Origin: Leucoraja ocellata
Lineage: Eukaryota
NCBI GenBank assembly: GCA_036785375.1
Contig: JAWMAR010000138.1
Location: 2,480,001-2,544,000 of the forward strand
Length of the DNA: 64,000 nucleotides
Direction: 5' to 3'
Below, in pieces: positions 2,395 to 64,000 of the stretch; position 1 is the first letter of the stretch, and the number at the start of each line of letters is the position of its first letter. The position numbers and the translations under genes were made by a program. Below the pieces are notes generated by a model. It had not been told where the DNA came from and made no database searches. It saw nothing but the letters and a program-made list of their open reading frames with translations.

Positions 2395-2667
2395 CTCCAT
2401 ACAGTTCGCCAAATATGACCTTACTTGAAGAATCTATCAGTTGCGAAACAATGGGATATCCTCCTGCTCAGATTCACTGGATGCTCAATGGAGAAAGAAA
2501 CCTCACCAATATATCAAGAACCGACAGAGAAAACACAACGGAAGGTCTGGTTAAAATCACCAGCAAACTTCCAATCAACCTATCCAAAGATAATCCAGAG
2601 AATAGCTATACTTGTTCTGTATGGAATGAGGCAGAGGGAAGAATTGAAGTGGATGCATCCTCATCAA
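2395..2667 (+). CDS. IgC-domain exon of a B7-family (CD276/B7-H3- or PD-L1-like) type I membrane protein; upstream leader/IgV exons not seen in the window
   Basis: Acceptor tcag|ctccat (AG 2393-2394), donor tcaa|gtaagt (GT 2668), phase 1-1. Translation APYSSPNMTLLEESISCETMGYPPAQIHW...GLVKITSKL...YTCSVWN matches B7 IgC hallmarks (APYSxP start, C-x-GYPxAxxxW, GLxxxxSxL, YxC). Five N-glycosylation sequons. Confidence 0.8.
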
Positions 2668-3455: not shown

Positions 3456-3602
3456 TTTCAAATCTTGTCGAATTGAACCCAGAACGGCAAAGAGAAGAAA
3501 AGAAGAAAAAGGTTCTCACTGCAGTCTATGTCATTATTGGAGCTCTGCTCTCTGGGATACTTATCCTGGGTCTTTTCCTACTCAGGAAAAGATACAGTCC
3601 AG
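3456..3602 (+). CDS. Stalk + transmembrane exon of the B7-like gene
   Basis: Acceptor tttag|tttca, donor ccag|gtacaa, phase 1-1, in frame with the IgC exon. Encodes (I)SNLVELNPERQREEKKKK-VLTAVYVIIGALLSGILILGLFLL-RKRYSP: hydrophobic helix followed by a basic stop-transfer. Confidence 0.8.
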
Positions 3603-4833: not shown

Positions 4834-4868
4834 ATCAAAGCCTCAAACCAGAATATATGCCACCATTG
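4834..4868 (+). CDS. Cytoplasmic mini-exon of the B7-like gene (DQSLKPEYMPPL)
   Basis: T-rich acceptor ttttag|atcaaag and donor ttg|gtaggt. Phase-1 entry matches the TM exon; the exit is phase 0. Confidence 0.6.
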
Positions 4869-4947
4869 GTAGGTTTGATTTCAAATATTCGACTTATTTT
4901 TAACAACTTGCGTCACTATTCTTATAGTTTCTTTGTTCTTTTAACAG

Positions 4948-5592
4948 TAATGTCCGGAACAGTGCAACTGGTAAATTCAATCCACTGAGCCAGCGTTTTG
5001 CAACGCAATGTTTTATCGGTTTGCTCATCTTATTGTGCAACTGCGCAACTTCAGCATCTGCCACAGAGATTGCGAAAATCATTGTAGCCTGAAAACTAAA
5101 ATTATGCTTTCACGATCCAGTGAATGGAGCAACGAACGATGGCACTTTGCTGAGCTCCGCCACTCGTTTTGTTTGACGTCACCAACATCATACATTGATT
5201 ATTCGCACTTAGTAAAACACAACGGCACGGTGGCGCAGCGTTGGAGTTGCCGCCTTACAGCGCCGGAGACCTGGGTTCGATCATGACTATGGGTTCTATC
5301 CGCACAGTGTTTGTACATTCTCCCTGTGACTGTGTGGGGTTTCTCCAGGTTTTCCAGTTGCCTCCCACAGTCCAAAGACGTGCAGGTTGGTTGTAAAATT
5401 GTAAATTGTTTGTAGTGTGTAGGCAAGTGCTAGTGTACGAGATGATCGCTGGTCGACACAGATTCGGTAGGCCAAAATCAAAAGAAAGACTGGATACAAA
5501 AGAGGCCAATCAGTTTCCCTAAGGAATAACACTGCTTTACACATAGAATGCTTAATAAATCAATGAGCCAGCCACCATAAATGTATAATAAA
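4948..5592 (+). other. Probable terminal exon of the B7-like gene: stop codon TAA (4948-4950) plus 3' UTR
   Basis: Acceptor ttctttgttcttttaacag|TAA after a 79-nt intron. AATAAA at 5554-5559 and 5587-5592. Confidence 0.45.
5222..5478 (+). mobile_element. HE1-type tRNA-derived V-SINE (representative); other copies at about 6890-7175, 9620-9905, 24895-25195 (+) and 15645-15890, 16190-16455, 23360-23650, 37970-38270, 51725-52030, 57915-58190, 58525-58780, 59045-59870 (-)
   Basis: A/B-box head ggcacggtggcgcagc...gggttcgatc, V-domain ttctccctgtgac.gcgtgggttt..tccgg..ttcctcccaca, CR1-like tail. Confidence 0.85.
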
Positions 5593-10589: not shown

Positions 10590-12432
10590 TCTGCCGTTGC
10601 GTTCCACACATTCCCATGGTGTGGCCATCAAAAAGGCCAAAGGGGACTTCTGCTCCAAGCTGGGGGATGAGACAGATGTTCGGCAGCTGTGGCGGGGCCT
10701 GAATGCAATCACCTCTACAAGGCGAAATCAGGAGGTAGCTCGAATGTCGGCGTAGCATCACTCTCTGACGAGCTCAATGCGTTTTACGCATGCTTTGATA
10801 GGGAGAAAACTGGTGTTCCTTTTTCCATGACTGGTGTTCCTTTTTCCATACCACCCCCATTCGCCGTGATGGTATTTCAGTCTCAGTCACAGAGGCCGGC
10901 ATCAGAAAATCCTTCAGAGGGGTGAACCCTCGAAAAGCACCTGATGGTATACCCGGTCGTGTTCTAAAACTTGTGCGGGCCAACTGATTGGAGTTTTTAC
11001 GGACATTTTCAACCTCGCACTTCTGAGGTCTGAGGTTCCCACCTTCTTTAAAAGGGCATCAATTATACCGGTGCCCAAGAAGAGCAAGGTGACATGCCTC
11101 AATGACTATCGACCAGTGGCACTAACGTCGGTGGTGATGAAGTGCTTTGAGAGGTTGATCATGGCGCAAATCAACTCCTACCTCGACAAAAACCTGGACC
11201 CACTGCAGTTCGCTTACCGCCACAACAGATCAACGGTGGATGCGATCTCGCTGGCTCTCCACTCCGCTCTGGACCACTTGGACAACAAAAACTCATTAGT
11301 CAGGCTAATATTCATTGATTACAGCTCGTCATTTAATACAATCATCCCCTCCTAGCTGGTTACCAAACTCGCAGAAGTGGGCCTCTGCGCATCTCTCTGC
11401 AATTGGATCCTCGACTTCCTCATTCACAGACCACAGACTGTTCGAATTGGTGGAAATGTGTCAGCTCGATAACAATCAGCACCAGAGCACGTCAAGACTG
11501 CGTGCTCAGCCCCCTGCAGTACTCACTCTATACTCATGACTGCGTAGCCAGTCATAGTGCGAACTCCATCATCAGGTTCGCTGATGACACCACTGTTGTG
11601 GGACGTATCACTGATGGGGACTAGTCAGAGTATAGAAGAGAGATCGACCGACTGACCAAATGGTGCCAGCACAATAAACTGGCCCTCAACACCAGCAAAA
11701 CCAAGGAACTGATTGTGGACTTTGGAAGAGGTAGGGTCGATAGTGGAAAGGGTCAAGAGCTTCAAATTCCTGGGCGTGCACATCTCTGAAGATCTTTCCT
11801 GGTCCCAGAACACTGATGCAATTATAAAGAAAGCACATAAGTGCCACTACTTCCTGAGAAGATTACGGAGAGTCAGTTTGTCAAGGAGGACTTTCTCGAA
11901 CTTCTACAGGTGCACAGTAGAGAGCATGCTGACCGGTTGCATCGTGGCTTGGTTCTGCAACTTGAGCGCCCAGGAGCGGAAAAGACTACAAAAAGTAGTA
12001 AACACTGCCTAGTCCATCATCGGCTCTGACTTTCCTTCCATCGAGGGGATCTATCGCAGTCGCTGCCTCAAAAAGACTGGCAGTATCATCAAGGACCCAC
12101 ACCATCCTGGCCACACACTCATCTCCCTGCTACCTTCAGGTAGCAGGTACAGGAGCCTGAAGACTGCAACATCCAGGTTCAGAAACAGCTACTTCCCCAC
12201 AGCCATCAGGCTATTAAACTCAACTCAAACAAAACTCTGAACCCATTTTCTGTTTATTTGCACTTTATCTGTTTTATTTATTCATGTGTGTATATATTTA
12301 TATTATGGTATATGGACACACTGATCTGTTCTGTATTCATGTCTTCTATATTCTGTAGTGCTGATGCAAAGCAAGAATTTCATTGTCTTATCTGGGACAC
12401 ATGACAATAAACTCTCTTGTATCTTGTATCTT
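10590..12432 (+). mobile_element. Rex1/Babar-type non-LTR retrotransposon, 5'-truncated, frameshifted RT
   Basis: [63 protein letters not shown]; 3' AATAAA plus (TCTTGTA)n tail. Confidence 0.88.
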
Positions 12433-19379: not shown

Positions 19380-20375
19380 GGCCCCTCTCATCCTTCTAAA
19401 CTCCAGAGTGTACAAGCCCAGCCACTCTATTCTCTCAGCATATGACAGTCCTGCCATCCCGGGAATTAGCCTTGTAAACCTACGCTGCACTCCCTCAATA
19501 GCAAGAATGTCCTTCCTCAAATTAGAGGACCAAAACTGCACACAATACTCCGGGTGTGGTCTCACTAGGGCCCTATACAACTGCAGAAGGATCTATTTAC
19601 TCCTATACTCAACTCCTCTTGTTATAAAGGCCAACATGCCATTCGCTTTCTTCACTGCCTGCTGTACCTGCATGCTTACTTTCATTGACTGATGAACAAG
19701 GACCCCCAAATCCCATTGCACTTCCCCTTTTCCCAACTTGACAGCATTTAGATAGCAATCTGCCTTCCTGTTTTTGCAACCAAAGTGGATAACCTCACAT
19801 TTATCCGCATTAAACTTCATTTGCCATGCATCGGCCCACTCCCCCAACCTGTCCAAGTCACCCTGCATTGTTATAGCATCCTCCTCACAGTTCACACTGC
19901 CACCCAGCTTTGTGTCATCTGCAAATTTGCTAATGTTAGTTTAAATCCCTTCATCTAAATCATTGATGTATATTGTAAATAGCTGTGGTCCTAGCACCGA
20001 GCCTTGCGGTACCCCACTAGTCACTGCCTGCCATTCTGAAAGGGACCCGTTAATCCCTACTCTTTCTTTCCTGTCTGCCAACCACTTCTCTATCCATGTC
20101 AGCACTCTACCCCCAATACCATGTGCCCTAATTTTGCCCACTAATCTCCAATGTGGGACATTATCAAATGCTTTCTGAAAGTCCAGGTACAATACATCCA
20201 CTGGCTCTCCCTTGTCCATTTTCCTAGTTACATTCTCAAAAAATTCCAGAAGATTAGTCAAGCATGATTTCCTCTTCGTAAATCCATGCTGACTCGGACC
20301 GATCCTGTTACTGCTATCCAAATGTTCGGCTATTTCATCTTTTATAATTGACTCCAGCATCTTCCCCACCACCAC
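19380..20375 (-). mobile_element. CR1 (HER1-like) LINE RT-domain fragment
   Basis: SQHGF....[50 protein letters not shown]. Confidence 0.92.
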
Positions 20376-22193
20376 TCTCTCCTTCAGTAATGCTACATAG
20401 AGGCAGTCATTCCTGTTCCTGCTCTGTCAAAGTATCATAGGGTCAGACAGCATGGAAACAGGCCATTCCATGCAACTCGTCCATGGCAACCAAGATTTAT
20501 AACTGAGCTAGTCCCATTAGTCTGCATTTGGTCATATCACCTCTAATCTTTCCTGTCCCTGTACCCCTTAACCTTTAAACATTGTCATTGCATCTGCCTC
20601 TACAGCTTCCTCTGGCAGCTTATTCCAAATACACACTCCGTCTGTGTATAAGGTCTATTTTGAAATCTTTCCCCATTCATCCTAAACTCATGGCCTCTAG
20701 TTCTAGATTCATTGGGAAACAGACTGTGGCCATTTAGTTTATCTGCACCTCTTTGTATTTTTTCCATCCTCTGCTCTGCCAGTCAAACACCTTTCCCATT
20801 CTCCTACCTTCTCCCCATAACCCCTGACACCCGTGCTAATCAAGAATCTATCAATCGCCACCTAAAAAATATCCATTGACTTGACCTCCACAGCCGACTG
20901 TGGGAATGAATTCTACAGATCCACCGCCCTTGTGACTAACAAAATTCCTCCTCATCTTCTTTCTAAAGGTACGTCATTGTATTCTGAGGCAAAAGCCTCT
21001 GGTCCTAGATTCTAAAGGTACTTTTCTAAAGGCACATATTTTTTACCTGAGGCTATGGCCTGTTGTTCTAGACTCTCCCACTAGTGGAAACATCTTCTCC
21101 ACGTGCACTCCTTTCACTATTCCACGTCCAGTCCTTTCATTATTCGTTAAGTTTCAATGAGGTCCCCCCCCCTCATCCCTCTAAACTCCAGCGAGTCCAG
21201 GCCTAGTGTTGTCTAACATTCATCATAACCTAATCATTTCTGGGATCATTCTCGTCAAGACCCTTCTTTAGACTTGCACCTTGTTTACCCTGTTTCCATT
21301 CCGCCTGATGAGAAATCTTCATTCACGCCCCCTCTCCTGGAGAGTAATGACTGTTCATCGTGGTTTACTTTCCTGTTTACGACTTGTGTTACATTTTCAG
21401 AGGGTTGCAGATTAAAGTGTTGTCTGCACTTTGTATTGCAGACTGACAGAAAGCATTTGACTAGAAGCATTAGTTCTGTTTCCATTCCTACAGATCTGCC
21501 CTGACCTGATCTGCTGAATATTTCTGGAATTTTCTGTGCGTGTTATTGCGACATTATCAAATGAAACTTGATCTGAAGATCACTTTTACTTCAGATCTCG
21601 AAGTGCGTGTGGGTGGGTGAAGTAGATGCGGCTGTGTTGTTTAGAAATTATGTCAACGGTTGCAATTTGGTTCTCATAATTAAAACTGACATATCAATAA
21701 CTTAGAGCAATGATCTCAGAAGTTTTTAGCTTTTTAGTTTTGAAGATAGAGCGTGGAAACAGGCGCTTTGGCTCACCGAGTCCACGGCGACCATTGATCA
21801 CCTGGGGTCATGGAAAGACCGATCACGTCGCAGCCCTGTTTCCACCAATCTTTCCACCAACACGCCCAAGAAACACAAGCAGCGCAAGACAGGCACCATT
21901 GTATCCAGATGCCGAGAAGTGTGTTCAGCTCTGGCTGAACAACTTCTAATCTTGTGTGGGGACACGATCAGAAGAAGATTGATAACCTGTACACTAATTC
22001 TTTCCTACACACAAAGGAACAATTTTACAGAAGCCAATTAACATACAAAACCTGCACGAATTTGGAATTCAGAAGGCGTTATAATCTGTAAATTAAGCAA
22101 GATTGTTGTTGTCTAACTGTCATTCAGTGCATAATCTTTTCTGGCCTGAGAGTACTGTGATCATTTTTTAAACCCTGTTACTGTGCTTTGTAA

Positions 22194-34093: not shown

Positions 34094-34151
34094 ATGGCTG
34101 TGCAAATATTCCTCTGCTTTTCGTTTTTATTCTTTCCAATGTTAACTGCAG
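34094..34151 (+). CDS. CD7: CD7-like receptor exon 1 (signal peptide MAVQIFLCFSFLFFPMLTA-G)
   Basis: Good Kozak context aatATGG, 19-aa hydrophobic leader, donor GCAG|gtaaga, phase 1 compatible with the IgV exon. Confidence 0.75.
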
Positions 34152-40998: not shown

Positions 40999-41343
40999 GA
41001 CAGTTTGTTTCCCAGTCTCCACGTACCATATATGCAGAAAGAGGAGAATCAGTTTCAATGACCTGTGAAATCACATTTACACATGGAAAGCTAGTGGGCA
41101 CTAATTTACTAAGGAATCCTTTGAACCCAATGGATCTTTGTTATGTCACCGGGACAACTGACTACGTACCTGATACGCATAGTCTTCGTTTGCGTTGCAA
41201 TGGGACACACGATGGAAAAAGGATCAACATTACTCTCAAAAATCTCCAGAAAAACGACACTGATATTTACTATTGTTCTTCTGGGATAGAGAACGGTAGA
41301 TTAGACAACTTCAACTCTGCAGGAACAATACTTTTTGTAACAG
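40999..41343 (+). CDS. CD7: CD7-like receptor exon 2 (IgV domain, CD7/CD28-family type)
   Basis: Acceptor ttttacag|ga, donor acag|gtacgt, phase 1-1. GQFVSQSPRTIYAERGESVSMTC...KLVGTNLLRN...DLCYV...RCNG...INITLKNLQKNDTDIYYC...SAGTILFVT. V-set with no C-strand Trp (as in CD7 GIYLRQ and in CD28) and a J-like G strand. Confidence 0.8.
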
Positions 41344-42562: not shown

Positions 42563-43915
42563 GTATGTCATTTTGCCTGTGAAACATATCTCCTCGAAAC
42601 CAGACGCCGAAACAGAGACATTTTTACATATTTCAGTAGAGATTTTGGGCAGTAGAGAATCTGTCATTTGGTACATTATTTTCCCGGCTTTTTTATTAAA
42701 ATTGGTGACCAACCTGACCTTTTCATTTAATCTGACCACTGCCCAGTTGCTGACGTTACAATAACAGTGAAATGTTTACACCTTCTGGTAGAAATTTCCC
42801 TCATGATTTCAAAAATCCAATCCTCTATAAATGTGGTCAATTACTTTCCGAGATACCTCTCTCCCCCCTCCGTCTCTCCCTCTCTGTCACTCTCCCCCCT
42901 CTCTCTCCTCCATCTCTCTCTTCCCATCTATCTCTCTCCCTCCCCNNNNNNNNNNNNNNNNNNNNNNNNNNNNNNNNNNNNNNNNNNNNNNNNNNNNNNN
43001 NNNNNNNNNNNNNNNNNNNNNNNNNNNNNNNNNNNNNNNNNNNNNNNNNNNNNNNNNNNNNNNNNNNNNNNNNNNNNNNNNCTCTCTCCCTCTCCCCCTC
43101 TCTCTTTCCCCTCTCTCTCTCTTCCCCCTATCTCTCCCCCACCTCTNNNNNNNNNNNNNNNNNNNNNNNNNNNNNNNNNNNNNNNNNNNNNNNNNNNNNN
43201 NNNNNNNNNNNNNNNNNNNNNNNNNNNNNNNNNNNNNNNNNNNNNNNNNNNNNNNNNNNNNNNNNNNNNNNNNNNNNNNNNNNNNNNNNNNNNNNNNNNN
43301 NNNNNNNNNNNNNNNNNCTGCCCTCCACACCCTCCCCTCCACCCCTCCCCTACCCCCTTCCTCCCACCTCTTCCCCATCCATTACCCACCATCTCTCCCC
43401 CTCCCTTCCTCCCCCTCCCTTCCCCCACCTCTCCCCCTTCCTTCCCCCTCTCCCCTTCCCTTCTCCCCTCTCAGCCCCCCTCTCTCTCCCCCCTGTCTCT
43501 CTCTCCTCTCTCTCCTCCCAACCGCTGCCCAGCTGCTGACGTCACAATGCCCTTGCTCGAGGCCCCCCTGTCTCCTGGCCCGTCCTGCTTCTGGATTAAA
43601 GCAGATGTTGTCACCGTGCATGCGCACTGCTTTCACGAGTTACGTTACCCCCCCCCCATTCTTCAAAAGGCGCAGAAAAATCGAGTGTTCTGCAGATCCG
43701 AGGTCACCGGAGGTCACCGGCGCTCAACGCTCAGCTGAAGAACTTTCTCCTCGCGGCCTGCCCCAGGTTTCCCTATAGTCGAGCCTGTCTCTTTCTCTCT
43801 CTCCCCAGTGCAGTGAGTAAAGTCTTCCCGCCTCAAAAGCCACGATCGGCCGGCCCTTTGCTGCCATCGATCGTCCGCCCGCTCCAGCTTTGTTTCCAAT
43901 CATTTATAAAACACT
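41465..43915 (+). repeat. Dimeric, microsatellite-rich non-autonomous element (possibly Helitron-like) spanning two assembly gaps
   Basis: Blocks at 41527-41880 recur at 42567-42840 and 43520-43680 (tgtcattttgcct.tgaaac.tatctcctcgaaa; gcatgcgca...cattcttcaaaaggcgcagaa). TCTATAT start, (GT)n and polypyrimidine tracts. Confidence 0.5.
42946..43317. other. Assembly gaps (N runs 42946-43081 and 43147-43317) within a polypyrimidine tract
   Basis: N bases in the sequence. Confidence 0.99.
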
Positions 43916-49871: not shown

Positions 49872-49973
49872 GGGAAAAATCACTATCAAGAGGCCGAATC
49901 TCAACGAAAACGAGTTCCAAATTCAGTGTATGAAGATATGAACTTGGTACGATCGCAAAGTATGGCTCGTTAG
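49872..49973 (+). CDS. CD7: CD7-like receptor exon 4 (cytoplasmic tail with YEDM, stop)
   Basis: Acceptor ttttag|ggg, phase 0. Encodes GKNHYQEAESQRKRVPNSVYEDMNLVRSQSMAR*. VYEDM is the CD7 tail YxxM motif. The four exons total 636 nt, i.e. 211 aa plus stop. Confidence 0.78.
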   Translation, partial: GKNHYQEAESQRKRVPNSVYEDMNLVRSQSMAR

Positions 49974-50381
49974 TGGTCAAGTAAAATGAGCCTTAAACAT
50001 TTGATTCAATTATCTATGAAAGGTAAAATGCAACATCAAAGTAGGATAGGACCTGATGGAATCTGCAAAGTTCTTAATCATTTTCTTCACTGTTTTGTTT
50101 CTGTGACGTAAACTTTTATGGAGTAAGATGGAATGCTGAAATCTTGAGCAAAACACAAGATGCTGGAATAAATCAGCGGGTCAGGCAGCATCTGTGGAGG
50201 GAATGTACAGGGGATGTTTTGGGTCAGGAACTCTTGATCAGTCTTAAGAATGGTTCCAAACCGAAACGCTCCCTCTCCATAGTCTCCAAAGATGCTGCCT
50301 GATCTGCTGAGTTACTCCAGCACTTTGTGTTTTGCTGTGGTATAAATTGGGTGTGTTTTAACAGAACATCATGTATATAAT

Positions 50382-50885
50382 CTACATGATGTTCTACAGT
50401 CTCACCGATGTAGAATCTACAATTCTACATCGGTGAGACTAAGCGGAGGTTGGGCGATCGTTTCGCCGAACACCTCCGCTCGGTCCGCAAGAAACTACCT
50501 GACCTCCCAGTGGCTCAGCACTTCAACTCCCCCTCCCATTCCCAATCCGACCTCTCTGTCCTGGGTCTCCTCCATTGCCAGAGTGAGCAACACCGGAAAT
50601 TGGAGGAACAGCACCTCATATTCCGCTTGGGGAGCCTGCATCCGACGGGCATGAACATTGAATTCTCCCAATTTTGTTAGCCCTTGCTGTCTCCTCCCCT
50701 TCCTTATCCCTCGAGCTGTCTCCTCCCATCCCCCAGCCCTCGGGCTCCTCCTCCTCCCTTTTTCCTTCCTTCTCCCCGCCACCCCCTATCAGACTGAAGA
50801 AGGGTTTCGGCCCGAAACGTTACCTATCTCCTTCGCTCCATAGATGCTGCTGCACCCACTGAGTTTCTCCAGCATTTTTGTGTAC
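50382..50885 (+). mobile_element. Penelope-like element 3' fragment (GIY-YIG C-terminus + pLTR) in the putative CD7-like 3' UTR
   Basis: YIGETKRRLGDRFAEHLRSVR...PVAQHFNS..H..SDL.VLGL...EEQHLIFRLGSLHP.GMN; 15-bp TSD catcatgtatataat (50367-50381 / 50886-50900). Confidence 0.88.
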
Positions 50886-50971
50886 CATCATGTATATAAT
50901 GTACAGACTCACTGTTCCATTACAATGTACATGCAATATACATTGTATATATATTTTTAGCTTTCATTTAA

Positions 50972-50977
50972 AATAAA
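50972..50977 (+). promoter_or_regulatory. Candidate polyadenylation signal of the CD7-like gene
   Basis: AATAAA in non-repeat sequence about 1 kb after the stop, followed by a T/GT-rich tract. Confidence 0.35.
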
Positions 50978-53900
50978 TCTCTATGTTTCACCCCACCTTC
51001 AGTGTTTTTCAATATCTGTGAGCTGTTCCACACAACGGGGAGGAAACTCATTCTTCAATCTGTGTTGCACTTGCAACAGAAGTGTGAAAAATTTGTCACA
51101 TTTGTTTCTTTGAGTGGCTTCTGATCTTCAGCTATCGTTCCCACCCTTGATTGAAAAAGGATCTTTATACTGAAGAAAACAGTGAATGCAAATCTTTACA
51201 ACAATGCATCCACATCATTGTGTCAATTATTGTCATCTTTCTGTGAATGTGAATGTTGCTGGCACTGTCGAAGCTGAACTCTGAACTGAGTTGTCAAATG
51301 CCAACAACATTGGTGGGTCAGGAATCACACTTGTAGGTCTAACTAGGTGGAGGGCAGTAGATGGGCACGCAATGAAATGCAGATGCTACAATCTTGCTGA
51401 GAACATAAAGTGCTGGAGTAAGTCATTAGGTCAGGAAGCCCGAGAGCGGATAGAGAGAGCTGGATGAAGACGGCATGAGTACCGGGCTCGTCCCTGGTGC
51501 ATTGCATGTCGGGCCGGGCTCCGCGGCTCCCCTGCCTGTGAAGTCTCGCTGATTTTAAACCCCCCCCACCCCAAACTCGGAGCTTCTTCCTTCGGCCTGG
51601 GGTTAAACTTCACCGCACTCCCCGCCACCCTCACTTGGTTATAGTGGACAATTGACAATACTGACACTATCCCCCTCCCCCATCCCCCGCACATGGTTTG
51701 TTATTGCAGGGATTTCTTGTACAACATGGAAACAGGGCCTTCGGCCCATCAAGTCCATGCCGCCCATTGATCACCCGTTCACACTAGTTCTATGTTATCT
51801 CACTTTCGCATCCACTCCCTGCACACTACGGGGAATTTACAGAAGCCAATTAACCTACAAACCTGCACGTCTTTGGAATGTGGCAGGAAACTGGAGCACC
51901 CGGAGAAAACCCAGGCAGTCACAGCGAGAACGTACAAACTCCGTACAGACAGCACCCGTGTGCAGATTGAACCTGGGTCACTGGCACAGTGAGGCACCAG
52001 CTCTACTGCTGTGCTAGTGTGCCGCCCTTAATTGTTATCCAACAACTAATTAGTATTATCCCTCCAACTTCTGAGACCAGCTTTCAGAAGTACCAGCATC
52101 AAACAGAAACAAAAACAGTTTCTCTCAATTCCTTTCTTTATGCCCAAATCTATTATTTTGGTGGAACAGGAAACTGCAGATGCCGAAATTTAGACCAGAA
52201 AACAAACTCAAAAAAAGGAACTCAGCTGGTTGGGCAGCATTCAGATTCACATTCAGATTCAACTTTAATTGTCATTGGCAGTGTATAGTACAGAGACAAC
52301 GAAATGCAGTTAGCATCTCCCTGGAAGAGCGACATAGAATATGGCTTCTGTGGAGTGTAGAGCATTCTGTAGAGCTACCATGTGGGGGGATGGTAGGAAA
52401 CGATGATGTTTTGTGTTGACACCTTGCACACAGTCCTGATGTAGGGAACACCGAGTCCTGACCAAAAAGGACCCGACCATAAACGTCACCCATCCTCTTT
52501 CTCCACAGATGCTGCCTGACCAGTAGTGTTACTGCACCACTTTGTGTGTATCGTTTCATATCTTGCATTGTTATCCTTGTGGCATCAAACACATGCGTAC
52601 ACCTGCCAAAAACAGACATTACTTGAGTTTCCTCTTGCATTCACACATTGATAAAGTAAGTGGTTGAGGTTGTAAAATATAGGTCACGCACCTCATGATG
52701 CAATGGCAGCAGAATGGGTAAACAGTGATCTTAATCCACAAAGGTTTTATGGTGGCTGTACAGAGCTTCAGTACACACTTCAGCAGGTACAGGATACTGA
52801 GTTTGATGATCAGCCATGATCATATTGAATGGCGGTGCAGGCTCGAAGGGCCGAATGGCCTACTCCTGCATCTATTTTCTATGTTTCTATGTTTCTATGT
52901 ACATCTACAGGCTGGGTTGTGACAGTCAGATGTATTCACTTGCACCGGGACACCAACCATGCCACTGTGCCACCCTAAGGATGCCACCATTACACGTCCC
53001 AATTCTTAATGCAAATTCCAATTTACCATTCTTGGACCTTAATACTGGTCTAAATTCCATTCAGCCTTTGTACTTTTTGGACGAAACCTTTCAGGATCCT
53101 GCCCTGTTCCCTGAAAGGAAGTCTTGAAAATCTATATCATAATTCTGACCATTTTGAATTTACAGATTTCACAAGTTTATCTTGAAGTTTCCAAGTAACA
53201 GGGACGGTGACTAGATCTAATGAGATAGAAATAATTGTACAAGTTGAAAGATAGGAGCAGTTGAAAGTGTATATTAACGCTGACTTTAGGCACTTCTTGT
53301 TATCTCTATCATGTAGATGTCACAATTTGAATCAGTTTCAGTCTGCCTCTTTCGATCTATCTTTCCATCTGTCTGTCTCATTCTCTCCGTCTGTCTCTCT
53401 CTCTCTCTCGGCCTCAAAAAAGCAACATTTCACTGAACCATGCAATCAAAACAAAACTACAACAATATGCAAATGAATTCCACCGAGTTCTTGATTTATA
53501 AGACTAAACAATATGTTATCTTTTGGGAAAATATTCTTGATGTAAAACTGAATTTTGAATCAACGTCTCACGATCTTTCTGTTATGAATTGAAAAAACCT
53601 GTAGCAGTGATTTTACAAAAGCATATTCAGAAAACAAAATGTTAAAGGTGATATTTCAATGTGATGTGAGAAAACCCACACGGTCACAGGGAGAACGTGC
53701 CGACTCCACACAAACAGCAGCCGAGGTTAGGATTGAATCCGGGTCTCTTGTGCCGTGTGGCAGCAGTCCCATTAGTTCAGAAAAATATTCTAAAAAAAAA
53801 ACCGACAAGCATCCACGCAGTGTCTCTTTTGGATTCAGAAACCACTTTGTAATCGTTAGAATCCCTGCAACGGACTGTTCCAGCTGCTACGGTCAGGCAA

Positions 53901-56900
53901 ACGCCTCCGTTGCCATGCGGTGAGAACGGAGAGGTTGAGAAGGAGTTTCTTCCCAGAGGCAATTCGGACTGTAAACGCCTATCTCACCAGGGACTAACTC
54001 TACAGAACATTTTTCCTTCCATTATTTATTATGTAAAAGAATATGTGTGTTATGATTGTGTTTATAATTTGTTTGGTTGTTTTGTTGTTTGTCTTTTGCA
54101 CAAAAGTCCGCGAGCATTGCCACTTTCATTTCACTGCACATCTCGTATGTGTATGTGACAAATAAATTTGACTTGACTTGACTAGAAGCACACTTGAATC
54201 TTACCTGTCTACAGTTCACCAAACAGTACATGTTACTGGCTATGTATACACGATCCCTGAATGACAATCATCTTTAGAATACGAACCTCTGCTTTTCTAA
54301 TATTTGATGCGTTAATATACCTTGCTATAATTGTTTTCTTATATTGACTGGTGGGCAGAAATGCTTTCATGTGTATTGATAGATATTTAGTTAAAGTTGG
54401 AGAAACTACCATTGAGAATACTTTGGTGGCAATTCGTAATTTTATTTGTGTGGATACAATACCTCCTCGTTTTTATGGTTCACTTATTATGTATTGATAT
54501 TCACTAAAAAGTATTGAACAAAATGATTTTGTGGCTGTCCTTTGGAGTATGTTTGCACAAGCATTAATACTGAAACATGGCTCACAATGGTTACCTTAAC
54601 ATGCCACCAGTTGCGATTGTTTTCAGTCACGTACATCACGTACATGACCTTTCCAGCTGGCATTTGCAAAGTGGATTTTTTTTTCTTCAGAAAGCTCGTC
54701 TTTCTAAATCAAAAGGTTTGTGGTTCCACGTCAAATGCATTTACGGCACAGCCGTTCACACCTGTCATTACTAATATAAAAATAGACAAACCTTCCCAAT
54801 ATGTGAAACAGGCTGGGTACTTGACTGATGGAAGAATGATAAAAAGGATTTGAAGGAGCTGTTTTAATGGGATTATGTTTATTTCTCTGCTAATTAGTTG
54901 AATAACTTCTGCATTTGTAACACTCAACGGTTCAATACACAAAAACATTTATTTGTGACATGTGCAACTGCACAGTGACATTATTTTTGCATATATTACA
55001 CCGCTATGTTTGGCAACATTATTCAAAGTCCGATCGGCCCGCACGCTTGATGTTCTTTGACTGGAATGCCAGAGGTTGTGTCGAGACCTGATAGAGGTAT
55101 AGAAAATGATGAGAGACATAGATAGGGTAGACAGTCAGAACCTTTCTCCCAGGAGGGAAATATCAAATACTAGAGGGTATATCTTTAAAATCAGAAGGGC
55201 AAAGTTTAATGGAGATGTGCAGGAAAAGTACTTTACACAGAGGGAGGTGAGTGCCTGGAACACGTTGTCAGGGGACAAATATGATAATGGCATTTAAGAT
55301 CATTTTGGATATGCACATGCAGGGGAAGAAGGGCCTGTTCCTGTGCTGTACTGTTATATATTCAATGTTCCCACAGATTGAATTATTCAGCTGTTTATAT
55401 ACTCATAATCCTTAAATACTTTTATTTTCTTTGGTTACTAGAATTTTTCTGCACAAAAACATTAATCTCAGGACCGATGAACTGCAATGGCAGCCTCACC
55501 AACAGTCTGTGTCGACTATTCCTGCTTTGTTGTTTATAGTATGTGTTAAATGTATGTTTTAGTGTTCTTCAGCTTGTTTTATGTGTGGGGGAGGTTGTGG
55601 TGATGGTGGTGGGGGGAGGGGGGGGGGGGTTTGGGGGGGAAACCTTTTTTAATCTCTTACCTCGACTGAGATGCGATTTCTTTCCGCATCGTATCTCCGT
55701 CCACAATGCGGCCTAACATCATGGCAGCAGATGGTTTGACTGCTCCGACCGCGGGAGACTAAGAGGAAGAAGATTAGACTTTATTGCCTTCCATCACAGT
55801 GAAGAATGTGGGGAATCCACTATGATGAATGGTGACTATTATGTAGTTGTGTGCATTGTTGCTTTTTTTTAGCATGGCTGTATGGTAATCCGAGTTTCAC
55901 TATACCTTAATAAGCGAGTTTGGTATCTCAATAACCGCAAGGAATCATGAGATTTGTCAAGGGTCATTCGTGATAAAATGAAAGTGAACGCAGCGCTATA
56001 TAAACTGTGTATAAATTGGTAACTATTCTACCAAAGAATTAATCTAGAATTCTGTCAACTCAATAGCTTCCTTTCTTGTTCTGCTGTTCACACACCACTT
56101 ACACAGTCCCAGTTCTAGTTCCGTTCATTAATCTGCAATTATGAGATATTCAAAAAGTTAAAGAATTTATTATTTTCATTTTATCCTTAATGTGTTTGCT
56201 ACTGGAATGAGAAAGTATCACTTGTGTTTGAAACATTTTTTTATCTTTATTCATAATATTTGTGTAAAAATATATTTCATCTGAGGCAGGCAGCGACTGT
56301 ATCAGTGTGATGTGGGCTGGTGCTTTACTTACAGGCGGTGTGAATGTACCGTTAAGGCAAAGATTCGTCTCCGAGGAAAACCAAGTACAGGGTTGGCCCT
56401 GTGAAGGAGCCACCAATCCGATATATGACATTTAACTGTGAATTGCCTGCCCTTTAGTATTGGATAGATTGAGTGGAGGGTCTGTGCTGTTCCAAGTTGG
56501 CGGTGGTTGCGGTGCGTTTTCCTCAGCCATCTTCCCAGTGCACGTTGACCAGCTCCGTTTGCCAGCTCTTGTTAGCAGAGGCTCTTTGTGCAGGTGTTAC
56601 CCGAAGCCCAAACGTTTTGTGGAGGTTCTGCATTGGGATCAAGCACGCATCGAGCTAGCGAGAGGGCTGTCAGATCAGTTCAGCCCAGGTTGCCGAGTGG
56701 CCGAAGGGCAGATTTTAATGCGTTGTTATTAAACTGTTCCGTCTGTGCGGCATTGCCAGCTCTCCCTCTCTCTCCCAGATCCCCCACCCCATCTGTCGAC
56801 AAAGTCTGACTGAGAAAATGCTCCAACTCATATTACGGGTTGGCTCCGCATTTGCCCACTCGCTGAGGCGGGCAGCACCTCCTTCAAAGAGCAAGAACAG

Positions 56901-59157
56901 GTCCCATCAGCTGGTGAGCTGCGCCCCACTCCTGAGTGAAGCCGCTAGTTTGGCTGCGGTTCAAATGGCTGTAAATTCCCATAATTATCACCGCCTGGTC
57001 ACCCGGACCCGGCTCCCAACTATGTGCCCTGACAGACTGGAAACAACACCAGAAGTTAAAGTGACAGCATCTTTATTTAAGCCAACCCACCTCGAATGTT
57101 TAACCAGCCTGTTTGAATCCAATCTGAACTTTCCAACCTACCCCCACACAGCACATTCGCCTCGTTTCCTTCAATCCAGGAAGGTTGTTTAGATAAGAAT
57201 GTAAGGACTGTCTCAAATTGGTTGACCACACAACTTGTAATTTGTGTAAATCAATATCAAATTTGAATGGCTGTGACTCAGGTTAATGCCAGGGAATTGA
57301 TAATTGACAGGTTTGTTCCAGGTATTCTTGGTTTTCAAGGCTGGTGCTGTATTGTCAATAATTTAAATAGATGCACTTGTGGATTTGTGCAGCCTGCAGT
57401 ACGTTGTGGCTTACCGCCGACATATTTGACGGATACATTTATTTATAAATCTCATTGAAATGAATACGCAAGTACGTACACACACAGTAGCTCAGCTGAC
57501 GAGAATGTTTATCCCGAATGACCCATGACCTGGGCATGCGCAGTTGTAATACCGAACTCGCTTGTTGGTACATGTGACAATAAACAGACCTTTGAACCTT
57601 TGAACCTTTGAACCTTTGATTCATTGTTTTGTCAGGCTTCTCACTGTTGTGGCTGAACCCACAGTCCAGGTCTGGTTGTATTTCTGGTCAATGTTGACTC
57701 AAAAATGTTGTGGTTGGACAATTTTACACGTGTTGTTTATCCAGAGTCTCTGCTCGTAATCGACTCATACACATGACGTTCAAGGTTGTGATTAAACTTT
57801 AGAGATACAGTGGAAAAACAGGGCCTCCAGCCCACTGATCATACCACACACTAGCACTATCACACACCAGGGATGTTAAACAGATCATGTCTGCCTGCAC
57901 GTGATCCATATTTAGTTTGGTTTAGAGATGCTACGGGGAAACAGACCCTTCGGCCCACCAAGTCTGTGCTGACCAGTGATCCCCATGCACTAGTACTATC
58001 CTACACACCAGGGAAACTTTATAATCTTTACCATAGCCAATAAACCTACAAAACTCCACGTCTTTGGTGTGTGAAGGATACCAGGGCACCCGGAGAAAAC
58101 CACGCGGTCCGTACAGACAGTACCCGCAGTTGGGATTGAACCTGTTCTCTGGCGCTGTAAGGCAGCAACTCCAGCACTGTTCCACTGTGCCAGCCTAGTT
58201 GCTGGATAATTGTTTGCCTAAATGAGCCACATTGGTGCTTGGAGCAGGCAGCATTCAAGGGTTAAATCCCACTAGTGCATTCAAATGACAACATTAAGGA
58301 GAACCACGGTAAAAGCATTTTCTTGAATAACCTGAATTTTAATGAACTTTAACATTCACCCACTTTGTTTGGACTTAGGTCATTTTACCTTTGTACGATT
58401 GGACCCTGGTTGATAGTTTGGGAATAGGTACACTGTTAAAAGATCTTGATGGATTTGAGCTGATCAGGTCTCGAGTTAGGTGGCGAGGATTACTGCCTTC
58501 TGATTTTTACTAACTTCTTCTCTTTAGAGATACAGCACGGAAACAGGCCCTTCGGCCCACCGATTCCGCATCGACCAGCGATCACCCCGTACAATTGCAC
58601 TTTCCTGCACACCAGGGGCAATTTACAATTGTTTTTACTGAAGCTAATTAACTTACAAACCAGTACATTTTTGGAGTGAGATCACAGGGAAAGCATGTAA
58701 ACTGTACAGACAGCACCTGTAGTCAGCATCAAACCCAGGTCTCTGGCTCTCCAAGGCAGCAACCCTACCACTGCGCCACCCTGGTTATTACAGCTCAATC
58801 CAGTTCAATCGCACATATTTGACATTATTTTTCCAAGAGCATATTTTACGCTGCTACAAATGATATTTGCAACTTTGAACTAGACTAAGTGGTCACCTAG
58901 TGTGACCAGGGGCTGATTAGCATAAACATGCAACATAGGACATAGATCTGTGCAGCACAGGGAAAGCATCTTCAACCTATAATGTCTGTGCCGAGCATAA
59001 AGGCAAGTTAAACAAATCTTCTCTGCCTGCACGTGATCCATATTTAGTTTAGATATGCGGTGCCCAAAGAGGCCCTTCAGCCCACTGAGTCCACACCAAC
59101 CAGGGATCCCCTATACTAGCACTGTCCTACACACTAGGGACAATTTACAATCTTTAC

Positions 59158-59692
59158 CAAGTTCATGTTCAAGGTAGTTTATTGTCATGTCCCCGATAGG
59201 ACAATTAAATTCTTGCTTTGCTTCAGCACACAGAACATAGTAGGCATTTACTACAAAACAGATCAGTGTGTCCATACACCATAATATAAATATATACACA
59301 CATGAATAAATAAACTGATAAAGTGCAAATAACAGATAATGGGTTATTAATAATCAGAGTTTTGTCTGAGCCAGGTTTAATAGCCTGATGGCTGTGGGGA
59401 AGTAGCTATTCCTGAACCTGGTTGTTGCAGTCTTCAGGCTCCTGTCCCTTCTACCTGAAGGTAGCAGGGAGATGAGTGTGTGGCCAGGATGGTGTGGGTC
59501 TTTGATGATACTGCCAGCCTTTCTGAGGCAGCGACTGCGATAAATCCCCTCGATGGAAGGAAGGTCAGAGCCGATGATGGACTGGGCAGTGTTTACTACT
59601 TTTTGTAGTCTTTTCCTCTCCAGGGCGCTCAAGTTGCCGAACCAAGCCACGATGCAACCGGTCAGCATGCTCTCGACTGTGCACCTGTAGAA
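59158..59692 (-). mobile_element. Rex1/Babar 3' fragment inserted into a V-SINE
   Basis: Minus-strand FYRCTVESMLTGCIVAWFGN...FRNSYFPTAIRLLN; SINE halves on both sides. Confidence 0.85.
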
Positions 59693-60779
59693 GCCAATTA
59701 ACCTTCGAACCCATACATCTTTGGAGTGTGGGAGGAAACCAGAGCACTGGGGGAAAACCAACGCTGTCACGTTGAGAACATACAAGCTTCGTACAGACAG
59801 AAGCCGCAGTCACGATCGAACGGGTCTCTGGCGCTGTAAGGCAGCAACTCTACCGCTGTGCCACCCATCTCTCTCCATCCCCAGCACATCAATGTGCTTA
59901 TTGTAAAGCGTCTTAAATGGTATTATATCTGCTCCACCATCACCGCATACCCGGCACCCCACACCCTCTGTGTAAAACCGTTGCCCTGCATATTTCCTTT
60001 AAAGTTTGCTCTTTCACACTCTCATCAAATGCATCTCATATAATGACCAGCCTCACACAAACCACAATGTCAGTGGACTCTGCACCTGACCCATTGTGGT
60101 GGAAGCTCAGACATTTATTTTGTGCAAAATAAATGTGAGAAAAGCTGAGGAAACCAAAATTTACGCACACACGGTTTTGTGAACTAATTACAATGCTGTT
60201 ATTCGGCAAACGTCAGCTCTGGGAAATCAAACCACTTATGAGTCCATAAAACCTAATTTAGTTTCGCCATATCGAAGCAATGGCCAAGAAAGCACACCAA
60301 TGCCTCTACATATTTAACCATAACCATATAACCATATAACAATTACAGCACGGAAACAGGCCATCTTGATCCTTCTAGTCCGTGCCGAACACGTATTCTC
60401 CCCTAGTCCCATACACCTGCGTTCAGACCATAACCCTCCATACCTTTCCCGTCCATATAACTATCCAATTTATTTTTAAATGATAAAAACCAACCTGTCT
60501 CCACCACCTTCACTGGAAGCTCATTCCACACAGCCACCACTCTCTGAGTAAAGAAGTTCCCCCTCATGTTACCCCTAAACTTCTGTCCCTTAATTCTCAA
60601 GTCATGTCCCCTTGTTTGAATCTTCCCTACTCTCAGTGGGAAAAGCTTACCCACGTCAACTCTGTCTATCCCTCTCATCATTTTAAAGACCTCTATCAAG
60701 TCCCCCCTTAACCTTCTGCGCTCCAAAGAATAAAGCCCTAACTTGTTCAACCTTTCTTTGTAAGCCTTTAGAAGGAAGC

Positions 60780-61355
60780 CTTAGGAAGTTTGGCATGTCC
60801 CCTACAACTCTCACAAACTTCTACAGAGGTCCCATAGAAAGCATTTTATCGGGATGCTTCACAGCATGCAAGAAATTGCAGTTAATTGTGGACGCAGCTC
60901 AGACCATCACACTAGCCAACCTCCCTTCCATTGACTCGATCTACAATTCATGCTCCTTGGGAAGGCCACCAGCATAATCAAGGACCTGTTTCACCCCGGT
61001 CACTCCCTCTTCTCCCCTCTCCCATCAGGCAAGAGAAGCAGGAGTGTGAAAACGCACACCTCCAGACTTCAGGGACAGTTTCTTCCCAGCCATTATCAGG
61101 CAACTGAACCATCCTATCAACAACTAGAAAGCAGTCCCAAGCTGCTATCTACCTCACTGGAGAACCTCGGACTATCTTTAATCGCACTTTATTGGACTTT
61201 ATCTAGCACTAAGCATTATTTCCATTATCATATATCTGTGCACTGTGGATGGTTCAATTGTAATCATGTATTGTCTTGGCTGGTTAGCACGCAACAAAAA
61301 AGGTTTTCACTGTACCTCAGTACATATGGCAATAAACTAAACTAACCCCAACTAA
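60780..61355 (+). mobile_element. Older Rex1-related 3' fragment (a similar copy lies at about 37095-37620)
   Basis: TLTNFYRGPIESILSGC, HPGHSLFSPLPSGKR; (TAAAC)n tail. Confidence 0.7.
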
Positions 61356-61616
61356 ATGTAAATGTGTACAACACCGTCATTGGTTTTCATTTGAGAAAAC
61401 ATGTTACTAGTTTCTTAGTTCCTGTCACACCTCAAAAAATCCTGTGGGAAAATGATCAATTTTTTCACCTGATACATTTGCAAAGAACTGGTAAACCGCT
61501 TCATGTCAGTGACTTGGGGAAAGAAAGTGGAGAGTGTGAGTGATGACATAGAATCAGTGAAGAAATAAGGACTGTATTTACTGCTTTACAAATCACTACA
61601 CAAAGTACTGGAGTAA

Positions 61617-63455
61617 AGGGCCTGTCCTACTTGGGAGACCTCCACCACGAGTTCTGGCGACCTTAAGCGACTAAAACAAAATCAAGGTTTCGGTGACCTA
61701 CGACCTACGACCTTTCTTGACTATGTGTACGACCTCCTACAACTATGTTGAAGACCTCCCTGGACTGCAAAGAAGTCCTCCTTTGACCTCCTTTGACCTC
61801 TTTCGACCTCCTACAACTATGTTGAAGACTGGCTTCAACCATGTACGTTTTACTCGAGGATGGTCTCTGGCAAATTGGTCCGTGAATGAGCACGACCCCC
61901 TTCGACCTCAGAGGACCACACCGACAACCAACAACGACCAGTGGCAAGTGTCTACAGCTCAAATGATCACCTGATAAAATTATGTCATGTCTGCAATTTT
62001 TCTCACTAAAACATGCCTCCCAGGTTTTGTTTTAATCATTCTGAACCATGCAAGCAAGGAAGGAACTAGTTTGGAGGATGTTAGTAAAACATACAACCAC
62101 TGCTGTTTGCAGTAGCCCTTTTGCTTCAACAGCCTTTTAAGAAAGGCAGAAGGGGAAGAACAAGGGTGAAGAGTAATTACAAGAAGAGGTCTCAATGGGT
62201 GAATGGAGGTGGTGGGGTCAAAGTTTAAGGATAAGAGGGAAGCCTTGTAGGTCCGAGATGAGAAAATCATTTTTTACACAGAGAGTGGTGAATCTGTGGA
62301 ATTCTCTGCCACAGAAGGTAGTTGAGGCCAGTTCATTGTCTATGTTTAAGAGGGAGCTAGATGTGGCCCTTGTGGCTACAGGGATCAGGGGGTATGGAGA
62401 GAAGGCAGGTACGGGATACTGAGTTGGATGATCACCCATGATCATATTGAATGGCGGTGCAGGCTCGAAGGGCCGAATGGCCTACTCCTGCACCTATTTT
62501 CTATGTTTCTATGTGATGGACTGTCCCAGTAAACCAGATGATTGGAAGAAAGTGGCGCTGGGCTTTGACAAAAGATGGAACTTTTTACGCACACATGTGG
62601 GGCAGTGGATGGCAAGCGTGCCATTCTTATCCCTGCCCCTGTACCCCTCATTTTCCTTATCGTACAGGATGGCATTCTGCTGGAACCATTCCTCAAGGTC
62701 CCCCTCCTGCTGCCTGGTGAAGGTGTAGGGCATAACCTTTCTCCAGCCCTCCCTCACCACCAATGGGGCATCTGCCTCTGATGCTGTGTCAGACACAAGA
62801 GAAAGGGCTGCTTTGCTGCCTTCAAATGAGGCAGTGAAGGATGGGGTGGTGGTGGGGACATATACTAGCACCCTGGTCTCCTCCTCCAGGCGTCTCTCAT
62901 GCAGGGCTACCTCCTCCTGCACTATCACCTCCTGCCACTCCTCCCCCTGGGTGGGCAATACCCGCATGGCAGGTTTTTTTAGGGTTGTGCCATTCCCCTG
63001 TGCTGCTGCCTTTTGTGTGCCATCTCTGAAACACAATTCTCCTCTCCAACAAAACTCTCCAGCTATGAATGAACATGCCCTGGAGTGACAGAGGTGACGT
63101 TCTGCTGTTTACATCACCTTTTTTTTCTACTGACTTTTTTTCACCCCAGAGCTATTACCTTCAACTACCTACGACTAGCATCACGACTTACTACGATTGA
63201 CTTCAACTAGACCTACGACTAAAAAAGTATCGATTTTTCCCACAGCGACCTATTTTTTAGTCGCGGTCAATTTTTAACATATTGATAAAATGTGCCGCGA
63301 CTTAGCTGAAGCCTCGACCACGCGGAGACCACTCTCGACCATGAAGGAGAGTGACGAAGACCTCCTACGACCTCATGGCAACCTTCCCGCAACTATGGGT
63401 CGCGGGCAAGATCGCCAGAACTCGCGGTGGAGGTCACCCGAGTGAGGCAGGGGCT
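61617..63455 (+). mobile_element. PIF/Harbinger DNA transposon, internally deleted
   Basis: About 46-bp imperfect TIRs (AGGGCCTGTCCTACTTGGGAGACCTCCACCACGAGTTCTGGCGACC vs AGCCCCTGCCTCACTCGGGTGACCTCCACCGCGAGTTCTGGCGATC). TAA TSD at 61614-61616 / 63456-63458 splits a Penelope-derived repeat. Transposase remnant PSKPDDWKKVALGFDKRWNF..CGAVDGK (+); MADF-like remnant EGDLEEWFQQNAILYDKENEGY (-). Confidence 0.88.
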
Positions 63456-64000
63456 TAACTCAATGGATCAGGCAGCATGTCTGGAGAACATGACAGGTGA
63501 CATTTAGGGTTGGGACTCTTCTTCAGATTAATTAGTTTAAGTTAGTTTAGTTTATTATTGTCACGTGTACTGAGGTACAGTGAAATGCTTTCGTTTGCAT
63601 GCTATCCAGTCAAAAATAACATACTATACATGATTACAATCAAGTCATCCATAATGCACAGATAAAGGATAAAGGGTACAAATAAAGGCCACAACATTTC
63701 ATACAATCTAACGTGCAATAAAGTTCAATTAAAGATAGTTCAGGTCTCCAGTTTGTTAGATGGGAGTTCAAGACCATACTCTTGCTGATGATAGGATCAT
63801 TCAGTTGGCTGATAGCCACTGGGAAGAAAATGTCTATGAAACTGGAGGTATGCGTTTTTAAATTTCCGCATCCCTTGCCTGAGAGGAGCGGGATGAAGAG
63901 GGAGTAACCGGGTGAGACTGATCCGTGATTATGCTGGTGGCCTTGCCGAGGCAGCGTGAAGTGTAGATGGAGTCAATGGAGTTTGGTTTACGTGATTGTC

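Follow-up and report, generated by a model that had tools for sequence, protein, structure and literature searches.

CD7 is a major CAR-T target. Its flanking genes in mammals are SECTM1, TEX19 and UTS2R, of which SECTM1 lies upstream of it on the same strand. SECTM1 is reported both to adjoin CD7 and to bind it in mammals (PMC4603632, PMC3769348); the 2015 study (PMC4603632) terms SECTM1 eutherian-specific and describes two invariant cysteines, Cys38 and Cys55, and the motif GxYxWxLxGxQ. The YEDM motif of CD7 is tied to PI3K by a title cited in PMC10320036. As for cartilaginous fishes, Table S3 of a 2026 survey (PMC13262535) scores CD7 orthologs as 0 in Chondrichthyes, with CD7 treated as mammalian, and the main text of the 2024 survey of the CD28 family (PMC11599192) never names CD7. 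The family definition given in the latter admits PD-1 as an exception to the proline motif, and the G-strand GxG is not universal in it. XP_055510220, the little skate relative of the gene described here, is not among the little skate accessions of the nine described CD28-family loci in its supplements S2 and S4, where the CD28/CTLA4 trio, CD28H, CD28HL1 and CD28X appear under other accessions.

We analyzed a window of 64,000 nucleotides from the skate Leucoraja ocellata (contig JAWMAR010000138.1), the whole stretch in which a sequence-only reading had seen a mosaic of CD7 and CD28. We conclude that the gene is very probably a CD7 ortholog with a CD28-like cysteine pair specific to rays and skates, in which a disulfide is likely; the mosaic is rejected, and a linked B7-type gene provides a lead to the ligand. 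The gene itself is not new, since the NCBI names of some shark genes, those of bamboo shark and catshark, are already CD7-like.

A four-exon CD7 gene in skate

The exon that encodes the Ig domain is 345 nt long with AG and GT at its ends (Table 1), and the frame from 41001 is open for 114 residues. Its product is a V-set domain (Pfam, E 1.2e-10) that has the canonical pair Cys22/Cys92, Leu36 where the C-strand Trp would stand, and three N-glycosylation sequons. Joined, the four exons give a 636-nt reading frame of 211 residues with one stop and AG/GT at every junction, and the encoded protein has the layout of CD7 and of the CD28 family: a single V-set domain, a stalk, a transmembrane (TM) helix and a short tail. 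A 797-nt contig of run X1, presumably RNA, spans exon 2 with three differences and runs across the splice sites, from a leader-like sequence through exon 2 into the TM exon. Since the AlphaFold2 model of the V domain has a mean pLDDT of 96.6 and this contig is spliced across exons, the exon 2 domain is not a chance open frame. The loose ends of the X1 and X2 contigs are similar to exon 1. The window, XP_055510220.1 and the two runs X1 and X2 do not agree at the end of the signal peptide (34094-34151).

Table 1. Coordinates of the CD7 gene and of the B7-type gene in the window
Feature	Positions	Strand	Evidence or remark
B7-type gene, IgC exon (CD80-like C2-set)	2395..2667	+	
B7-type gene, stalk and transmembrane exon	3456..3602	+	
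B7-type gene, tail	4834..4950	+	short exon 4834-4868 ending EYMPPL, spliced stop 4948-4950
CD7 exon 1: ATG and signal peptide (phase 1)	34094..34151	+	tblastn of P0002, splice sites
CD7 exon 2: IgV domain	40999..41343	+	open frame, Pfam, model, splice sites
Cys47 codon, C' strand	41139..41141	+	model strand E44-50
Cys66 codon, D strand	41196..41198	+	model strand E64-68
F-G region SSGIENGR, without proline motif	41277..41300	+	same in 4/4 skate sequences seen
CD7 exon 3: stalk (two Cys) and transmembrane helix	46873..47003	+	splice sites; X1 contig runs into exon 3
CD7 exon 4: cytoplasmic tail, VYEDM, stop	49872..49973	+	YEDM at 49929-49940

A scan of the 150 longest of the 341 non-repeat frames found, besides CD7, only the B7-type gene in the window. 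A tandem second copy within the window was ruled out, as none of six exons recurs. The regions 5000-34000 and 50000-64000 are mostly LINE/SINE-like repeats, and 35% of the window matches itself; reverse transcriptase fragments lie at 10945-11621 and 19596-20426, and N gaps at 42946-43081 and 43147-43317.

Membership in the CD7 family

The nearest named proteins are those of two skates, Leucoraja erinacea XP_055510220.1 and Amblyraja radiata XP_032899882.1. Full-length P0002, a protein near-identical to that of the window, was searched against 1.84 billion representatives with E up to 0.001 and gave 88 matches, 20 of which were checked for their names. Six of the ten best matches were named CD7 or CD7-like (from bamboo shark, a bird, a caecilian, a gharial, a turtle and tuatara), and the other four were ray proteins. 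A second search for relatives gave 13 matches, shark and bichir included, several of them named CD7-like; chimaera and squalomorph CD7 orthologs were not among these 13, which does not imply their absence from those groups.

A broad profile (A1) includes mammalian CD7, which makes its PDB match circular, and tetrapod-free profiles were used instead. Human CD7 was the best single-domain PDB match for the profile of nine cartilaginous-fish rows (12hp, 60.5 bits, the next single domain at 34.4), for that of nine shark rows (47.4 bits) and for that of six ray and skate rows, all of which have the extra cysteine pair (42.7 bits, with CD28 below 34.8). CD28 did not appear in the top 60 PDB matches of any of the CD7 profiles. 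When the window V domain was searched alone, the best non-antibody match in the PDB was the CD28 chain 4r0l (31.7 bits) and human CD7 was not in the top 60; a search by single sequence favours CD28, and this is the real basis of the impression from which the mosaic came.

We built a tree from 115 columns of 59 V domains, eight of them outgroup domains and none of them from CD28, CTLA4 or ICOS; many of its forks are open. The six rays and skates (96/88) and the nine sharks (99/95) form sister groups in it (98/99), and all CD7-like rows split from the outgroup (98/99). By tree and by profiles the gene thus nests in the CD7 family, as its CD7-like features had suggested to the sequence-only reading. 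The V domain, stalk, TM helix and tail all follow the shark CD7-like proteins, and the VYEDM of the CD7 tail is present in exon 4; the YEDM that had been assigned to the Ig exon is real, but begins at 49929, beyond 40999-41343. No grouping with CD8, TCR-V or NKp30-like domains, named earlier as unrelated V-set families, appears in the tree, yet TCR-V and antibody V domains come out on top in fold searches. The predicted domain itself retrieved TCR, VHH and CD8 at the top (Z 15-18, largely tied), and CD28, CTLA-4 and ICOS were not among the rows shown; these searches were too flat to rank CD28 against other V domains. The search of a viral fold library gave generic Ig proteins only. The nearest ESM Atlas clusters of the receptor are V-set, ICOS-like and CTLA4-like at 0.97, a weak lead.

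The skate gene shares with human CD7 (12hp), Chiloscyllium XP_043570560 and the Scyliorhinus "T-cell antigen CD7-like" protein a single V domain without C-strand Trp, a stalk, a TM helix and the VYEDM tail; it differs from other CD7 in the Cys47/Cys66 pair, found in rays and skates, and in a short stalk with two cysteines. Exon 2 thus very probably encodes the single IgV domain of a skate CD7 ortholog, likely a costimulatory receptor of T or NK cells that recruits PI3K through its VYEDM tail, likely with an extra disulfide and possibly with a B7-type ligand. This ortholog dates the receptor to early jawed vertebrates.

Several elasmobranch CD7 genes carry other names in NCBI (XP_055510220.1, XP_069786410.1 and P0119: TCR beta-like, Ig kappa V region and CMRF35-like), and this misnaming may be the reason why surveys have missed CD7. 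An identity as TCR beta or Ig kappa, as such names imply, is ruled out by the lack of a C-strand Trp, the lack of a constant domain and the VYEDM tail. CD28X was likewise ruled out, by the absence of PPP and by its different accession.

The additional cysteine pair

The motifs on which the sequence-only reading was built are all present in exon 2: DLCYV (with Cys47), RCNG (with Cys66), TLKNLQKNDTDIYYC, SSGIENGR, LDNFNSAGTILFV, VSQSP and GTNLLR. Its CD28 counterparts, given from recall, agree with the human CD28 row in supplement S3 of PMC11599192. It was also right that MYPPPY is absent, with SSGIENGR in the F-G region, and that the two extra cysteines match the CD28/CTLA-4 pair in position. 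In the model Cys47 lies on strand C' and Cys66 on strand D, 18 residues apart; the corresponding spacing is 19 in human CD28, 17 in CTLA4 and 19 in ICOS, and 18, 19 and 18 in the skate trio (counts by eye from supplement S3 of PMC11599192). The two cysteines thus sit at the same places as the pair of CD28, CTLA-4 and ICOS.

Cys47 and Cys66 are very probably joined by a C'-D disulfide. In the alignments Cys66 falls on the Ile of heavy-chain RFTI and Cys47 on that of light-chain LLIY, with one heavy-chain alignment off by one at Cys47. These are presumably the antibody positions Cys54 and Cys78. The known C'-D bond between Cys54 and Cys78 is easily formed, and somatic mutation has produced it in a camelid VHH (PMC10641266); given the alignment with these positions, a bond in the skate domain is likely, and it would be easily gained.

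Among 22 aligned rows, Cys47 is present in all six rays and skates and in none of the nine sharks or seven bony vertebrates, and Cys66 in all six rays and skates, three of the nine sharks and none of the seven bony vertebrates. Our wider collection comprised 139 V domains from 93 of 96 proteins. Both extra cysteines occur in nine of these domains, eight of them from rays and skates and one from outside the batoids (the first domain of P0030), and the D-strand Cys occurs alone in four further CD7-like domains, besides that of bamboo shark. A single gain in the ray stem would account for Cys47 within CD7. With the pair in 6/6 ray and skate rows and 0/9 shark rows, inheritance from a CD28-like ancestor is about as parsimonious as a new gain. 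Descent of the pair from an ancestor shared with CD28, CTLA-4 and ICOS has, in our judgement, a chance somewhat under even, and we lean towards its having been regained in the ray and skate stem. The lone Cys66 of sharks fits a relic, and fits a tolerated buried residue as well. Taken on its own, the pair is a modest structural detail.

Relation of CD7 to the CD28 family

Compared with CD28, CTLA-4 and ICOS and with the chondrichthyan trio (XP_055494224-6), skate CD7 has the matching C' and D cysteines, no C-strand Trp, a YxxM-type tail and the same V-TM-tail layout. It differs from them in lacking (M)YPPPY or PPP, in lacking YxxxxT in the TM helix, and in its accession and chromosome, and they are not among its top profile or fold matches. 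CD28X of PMC11599192 resembles it in the YEDM tail; skate CD28X and CD28H differ in that they keep the Trp, lack the Cys pair and have other accessions, while skate CD7 has neither the PPP nor the EIP of these proteins.

The sequence-only reading took the domain for an intermediate between CD7 and CD28, and its title implied a recombinant. Either a separate intermediate lineage or a recombinant origin is very improbable. Although the search by single sequence does place CD28 above CD7, the V domain, stalk, TM helix and tail are all shark-CD7-like, the tree mirrors the split between rays and sharks, and the skate CD28 trio is separate, on chromosome 7. Both "mosaic" and "intermediate" thus fail for a protein that lies as a whole inside the CD7 family with sharks as its sister group, and for which even the profile of rows with the Cys pair scores CD7 above CD28. 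The supposed CD28-type framework, L..L...D[TS]D.Y.C, was found in 36 of the 139 domains, 35 of which are CD7-like by our reading, and is therefore a feature of the CD7 family.

In its defensible form the idea makes CD7 a divergent offshoot of the CD28 family and has rays and skates retain the ancestral C'-D disulfide of CD28, CTLA-4 and ICOS, which would have been lost in sharks and in bony vertebrates. Such a history would not conflict with CD7 orthology, and we regard it as possible but somewhat less probable than not. The positions and spacing of the cysteines equal those of the CD28 trio, although Cys47 is in no shark or bony-vertebrate row and regain is easy, as the somatic bond of camelid VHH and the first domain of P0030, which has both cysteines independently, illustrate. 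A lone D-strand Cys, in three of the nine shark rows and four other CD7-like domains, is what a relic would leave. Were CD7 the sister of the trio, a history of two losses would need as many steps as one loss and one gain (hand count on the tree). The C-strand Trp is absent from CD7-like rows and from the trio and is kept by skate CD28H, CD28HL1 and CD28X; CD28X, for its part, shares YEDM. Against common descent, CD28 lies beyond the top 60 for all CD7 profiles, and the Pfam ICOS V-set family matches one of 22 rows (E 0.046), with none listed among 31. No CD7-like domain among the 139 has a proline motif (PPP or EIP) near CDR3, where the skate gene has SSGIENGR. The G-strand GxG is also absent from the skate gene, which has SAGT; GxGT is found in many CD7 relatives, and four CD7-like paralogs of fish have a G strand of the SNGT type. 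The lungfish CD28H P0088 reaches 59.8 bits with a CD7 V profile made from elasmobranchs only, where none of the 21 other non-CD7 matches exceeds 31.8, but it is one long-branch sequence that was selected by the same search. The missing Trp and this score are two hints, at the level of the family, toward CD28 relatives.

P0088 matches XP_043946518, also lacks the C-strand Trp, and outscores two mammalian CD7 rows (44.0 and 38.0) on the elasmobranch profile. It may be a better bridge between the CD7 and CD28 families than the skate gene.

The upstream B7-type gene

The second gene in the window is of B7 type, lies on the same strand as CD7 and ends 29 kb upstream of it. Its leader and V exons are outside the window, presumably before base 1. 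The exons in the window are identical to P0005 over 151 residues and differ from XP_055510223.1 at two. Reading through at the tail gives the longer tail of the Amblyraja model, which makes two alternative tail ends. The full protein has a V and a C domain, and its best PDB matches include CD276, butyrophilin, PD-L1 and CD80. Like the B7 family (CD276/B7-H3, PD-L1, CD80) and butyrophilins, it combines a V with a CD80-like C domain, a TM helix and a short tail, and its closest solved relatives are B7 proteins, with the similarity to butyrophilins comparable. It departs from the B7 family in a V domain without C-strand Trp and with an extra N-terminal Cys. Human B7 members score about 30 bits per unit against it, and none is a clear ortholog. 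A structural model of the protein was set aside for its pLDDT below 50 in the V domain, and the ESM Atlas placed this V domain in generic clusters. RefSeq names the gene PD-L1/PD-L2-like in Leucoraja and CD276-like in Amblyraja; the tail ends in YMPPL.

Relatives of both genes are found on contigs of equal size in Leucoraja (35,584,021) and in Amblyraja (37,436,020). Two automatic gene models from one sturgeon genus each contain a B7-type part fused with a CD7-like V domain, and one of them continues into a flavoprotein, presumably FDXR. The B7-type part scores 45.6 bits with P0005, where single human B7 units score about 30, and by this measure the closest relative of the upstream gene seen here is the B7-type part of the sturgeon models. 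The CD7-like gene of sturgeon belongs to a paralogous branch without YEDM.

Variation in the V domains

The CD7 of the window and XP_055510220.1, which NCBI misnames "M1-specific T cell receptor beta chain-like", differ at 17 of 114 V residues (85% identity) and at one of the 77 residues of stalk, TM helix and tail (76 identical; Fisher p 0.0016). Fourteen of the 17 differences fall in residues 30-72, strands C to D, a range picked post hoc, and the F-G loop is unchanged between the two. The variant sites of run X1 (41123, 41193 and 41239) are all non-synonymous (L41F, R65G and K80R); each variant residue is found in another skate sequence, and one also in run X4, from a second study. In the B7-type gene, 20 of 89 V sites are variable, compared with 11 of 152 other sites and 2 of 90 C-domain sites, among ten near-identical sequences mostly from unknown species. 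Variation is thus concentrated in the V domains of both skate genes. This pattern fits diversifying selection on both binding domains, and the variants may mix alleles, close species and paralogs.

A candidate ligand and its relation to SECTM1

Skate CD7 would most likely act on T or NK cells as a type I receptor. Its V domain would bind an Ig ligand at the cell surface by some face that is not a proline loop, and its tail tyrosine (VYEDM) would recruit PI3K, as reported for human CD7; by this analogy, PI3K signalling on lymphocytes is probable. The two stalk cysteines may dimerise the receptor or bond with each other. The best candidate for the ligand is the putative protein of the upstream gene, and we rate the chance that it binds CD7 as only slightly short of even. 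If it does, CD7 and SECTM1 would be one more CD28-B7 pair.

A fuller version, which we consider less probable than not, makes the upstream gene both a cis-linked CD7 ligand and the ancestor of SECTM1, with the C domain and the F-strand Cys lost later and the V domains of receptor and ligand co-varying in skates. The position next to CD7 and the binding of CD7 by its mammalian neighbour argue for it (PMC4603632, PMC3769348), although adjoining genes are frequently non-binding. As in SECTM1/K12, an N-terminal Cys precedes the B-strand Cys by 16-17 residues: Cys30 and Cys46 are present in all five skate B7-type sequences checked, as Cys38 and Cys55 are in SECTM1, and a Cys at that N-terminal place is rare, with 5 cases in 134 other V domains. 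A motif resembling that of SECTM1 around the F strand, GxYxCxIxTxQ, is found in four of the five, as a pattern match rather than an alignment, but the agreement amounts to three identities out of six. Unlike SECTM1, which has a single Ig domain, the upstream gene keeps its C domain. Most of the species seen also keep the F-strand Cys, but in the Rhinoraja sequence this site is Tyr and the N-terminal pair alone remains. SECTM1 is not in the top 60 PDB matches of a V-only profile (it may be missing from the PDB), and PMC4603632 reports having found it in no lineage outside eutherians. The score of the sturgeon fragment, well above those of human B7 units, is a further point in favour, yet it comes from two fused automatic models of one genus. 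The excess of variable sites in the V over the C domain also counts in favour, but the variant (Logan) sequences are from species not identified.

At its broadest, CD7 would be an overlooked tenth branch of the CD28 family, cis-linked to a B7 ligand since the first jawed vertebrates, with SECTM1 as a truncated mammalian descendant of that ligand, not a novelty of eutherians, and skates keeping the old state; we consider this unlikely. Were it true, the old state would comprise a CD28-type disulfide in the receptor, a ligand with both V and C domains, and allelic variation concentrated where the linked receptor and ligand bind, in one domain of each. The neighbour of CD7 would then have passed from a V+C B7-type gene, as in skate, to the single-domain SECTM1 of mammals. 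A literature search, mostly at title and abstract level and with subscription papers mostly outside it, listed no work that assigns CD7 to the CD28 family, puts a B7 gene next to CD7 in fish, or links SECTM1 to a fish B7 gene; the B7 surveys of Hansen 2009, Flajnik 2012 and Bernard 2007 may cover the gene.

Other CD7-like genes

The tree contains a second CD7-like branch without YEDM (99/95), with members from sturgeon, bowfin and teleosts (P0112, P0051, P0097 and P0080). Scyliorhinus canicula and Polypterus have two CD7-like genes each, on one chromosome. CD7 models with two V domains in tandem were seen in birds, gharial and caecilian and in teleost cd7al models (P0025, P0026, P0027, P0035, P0115 and P0127).
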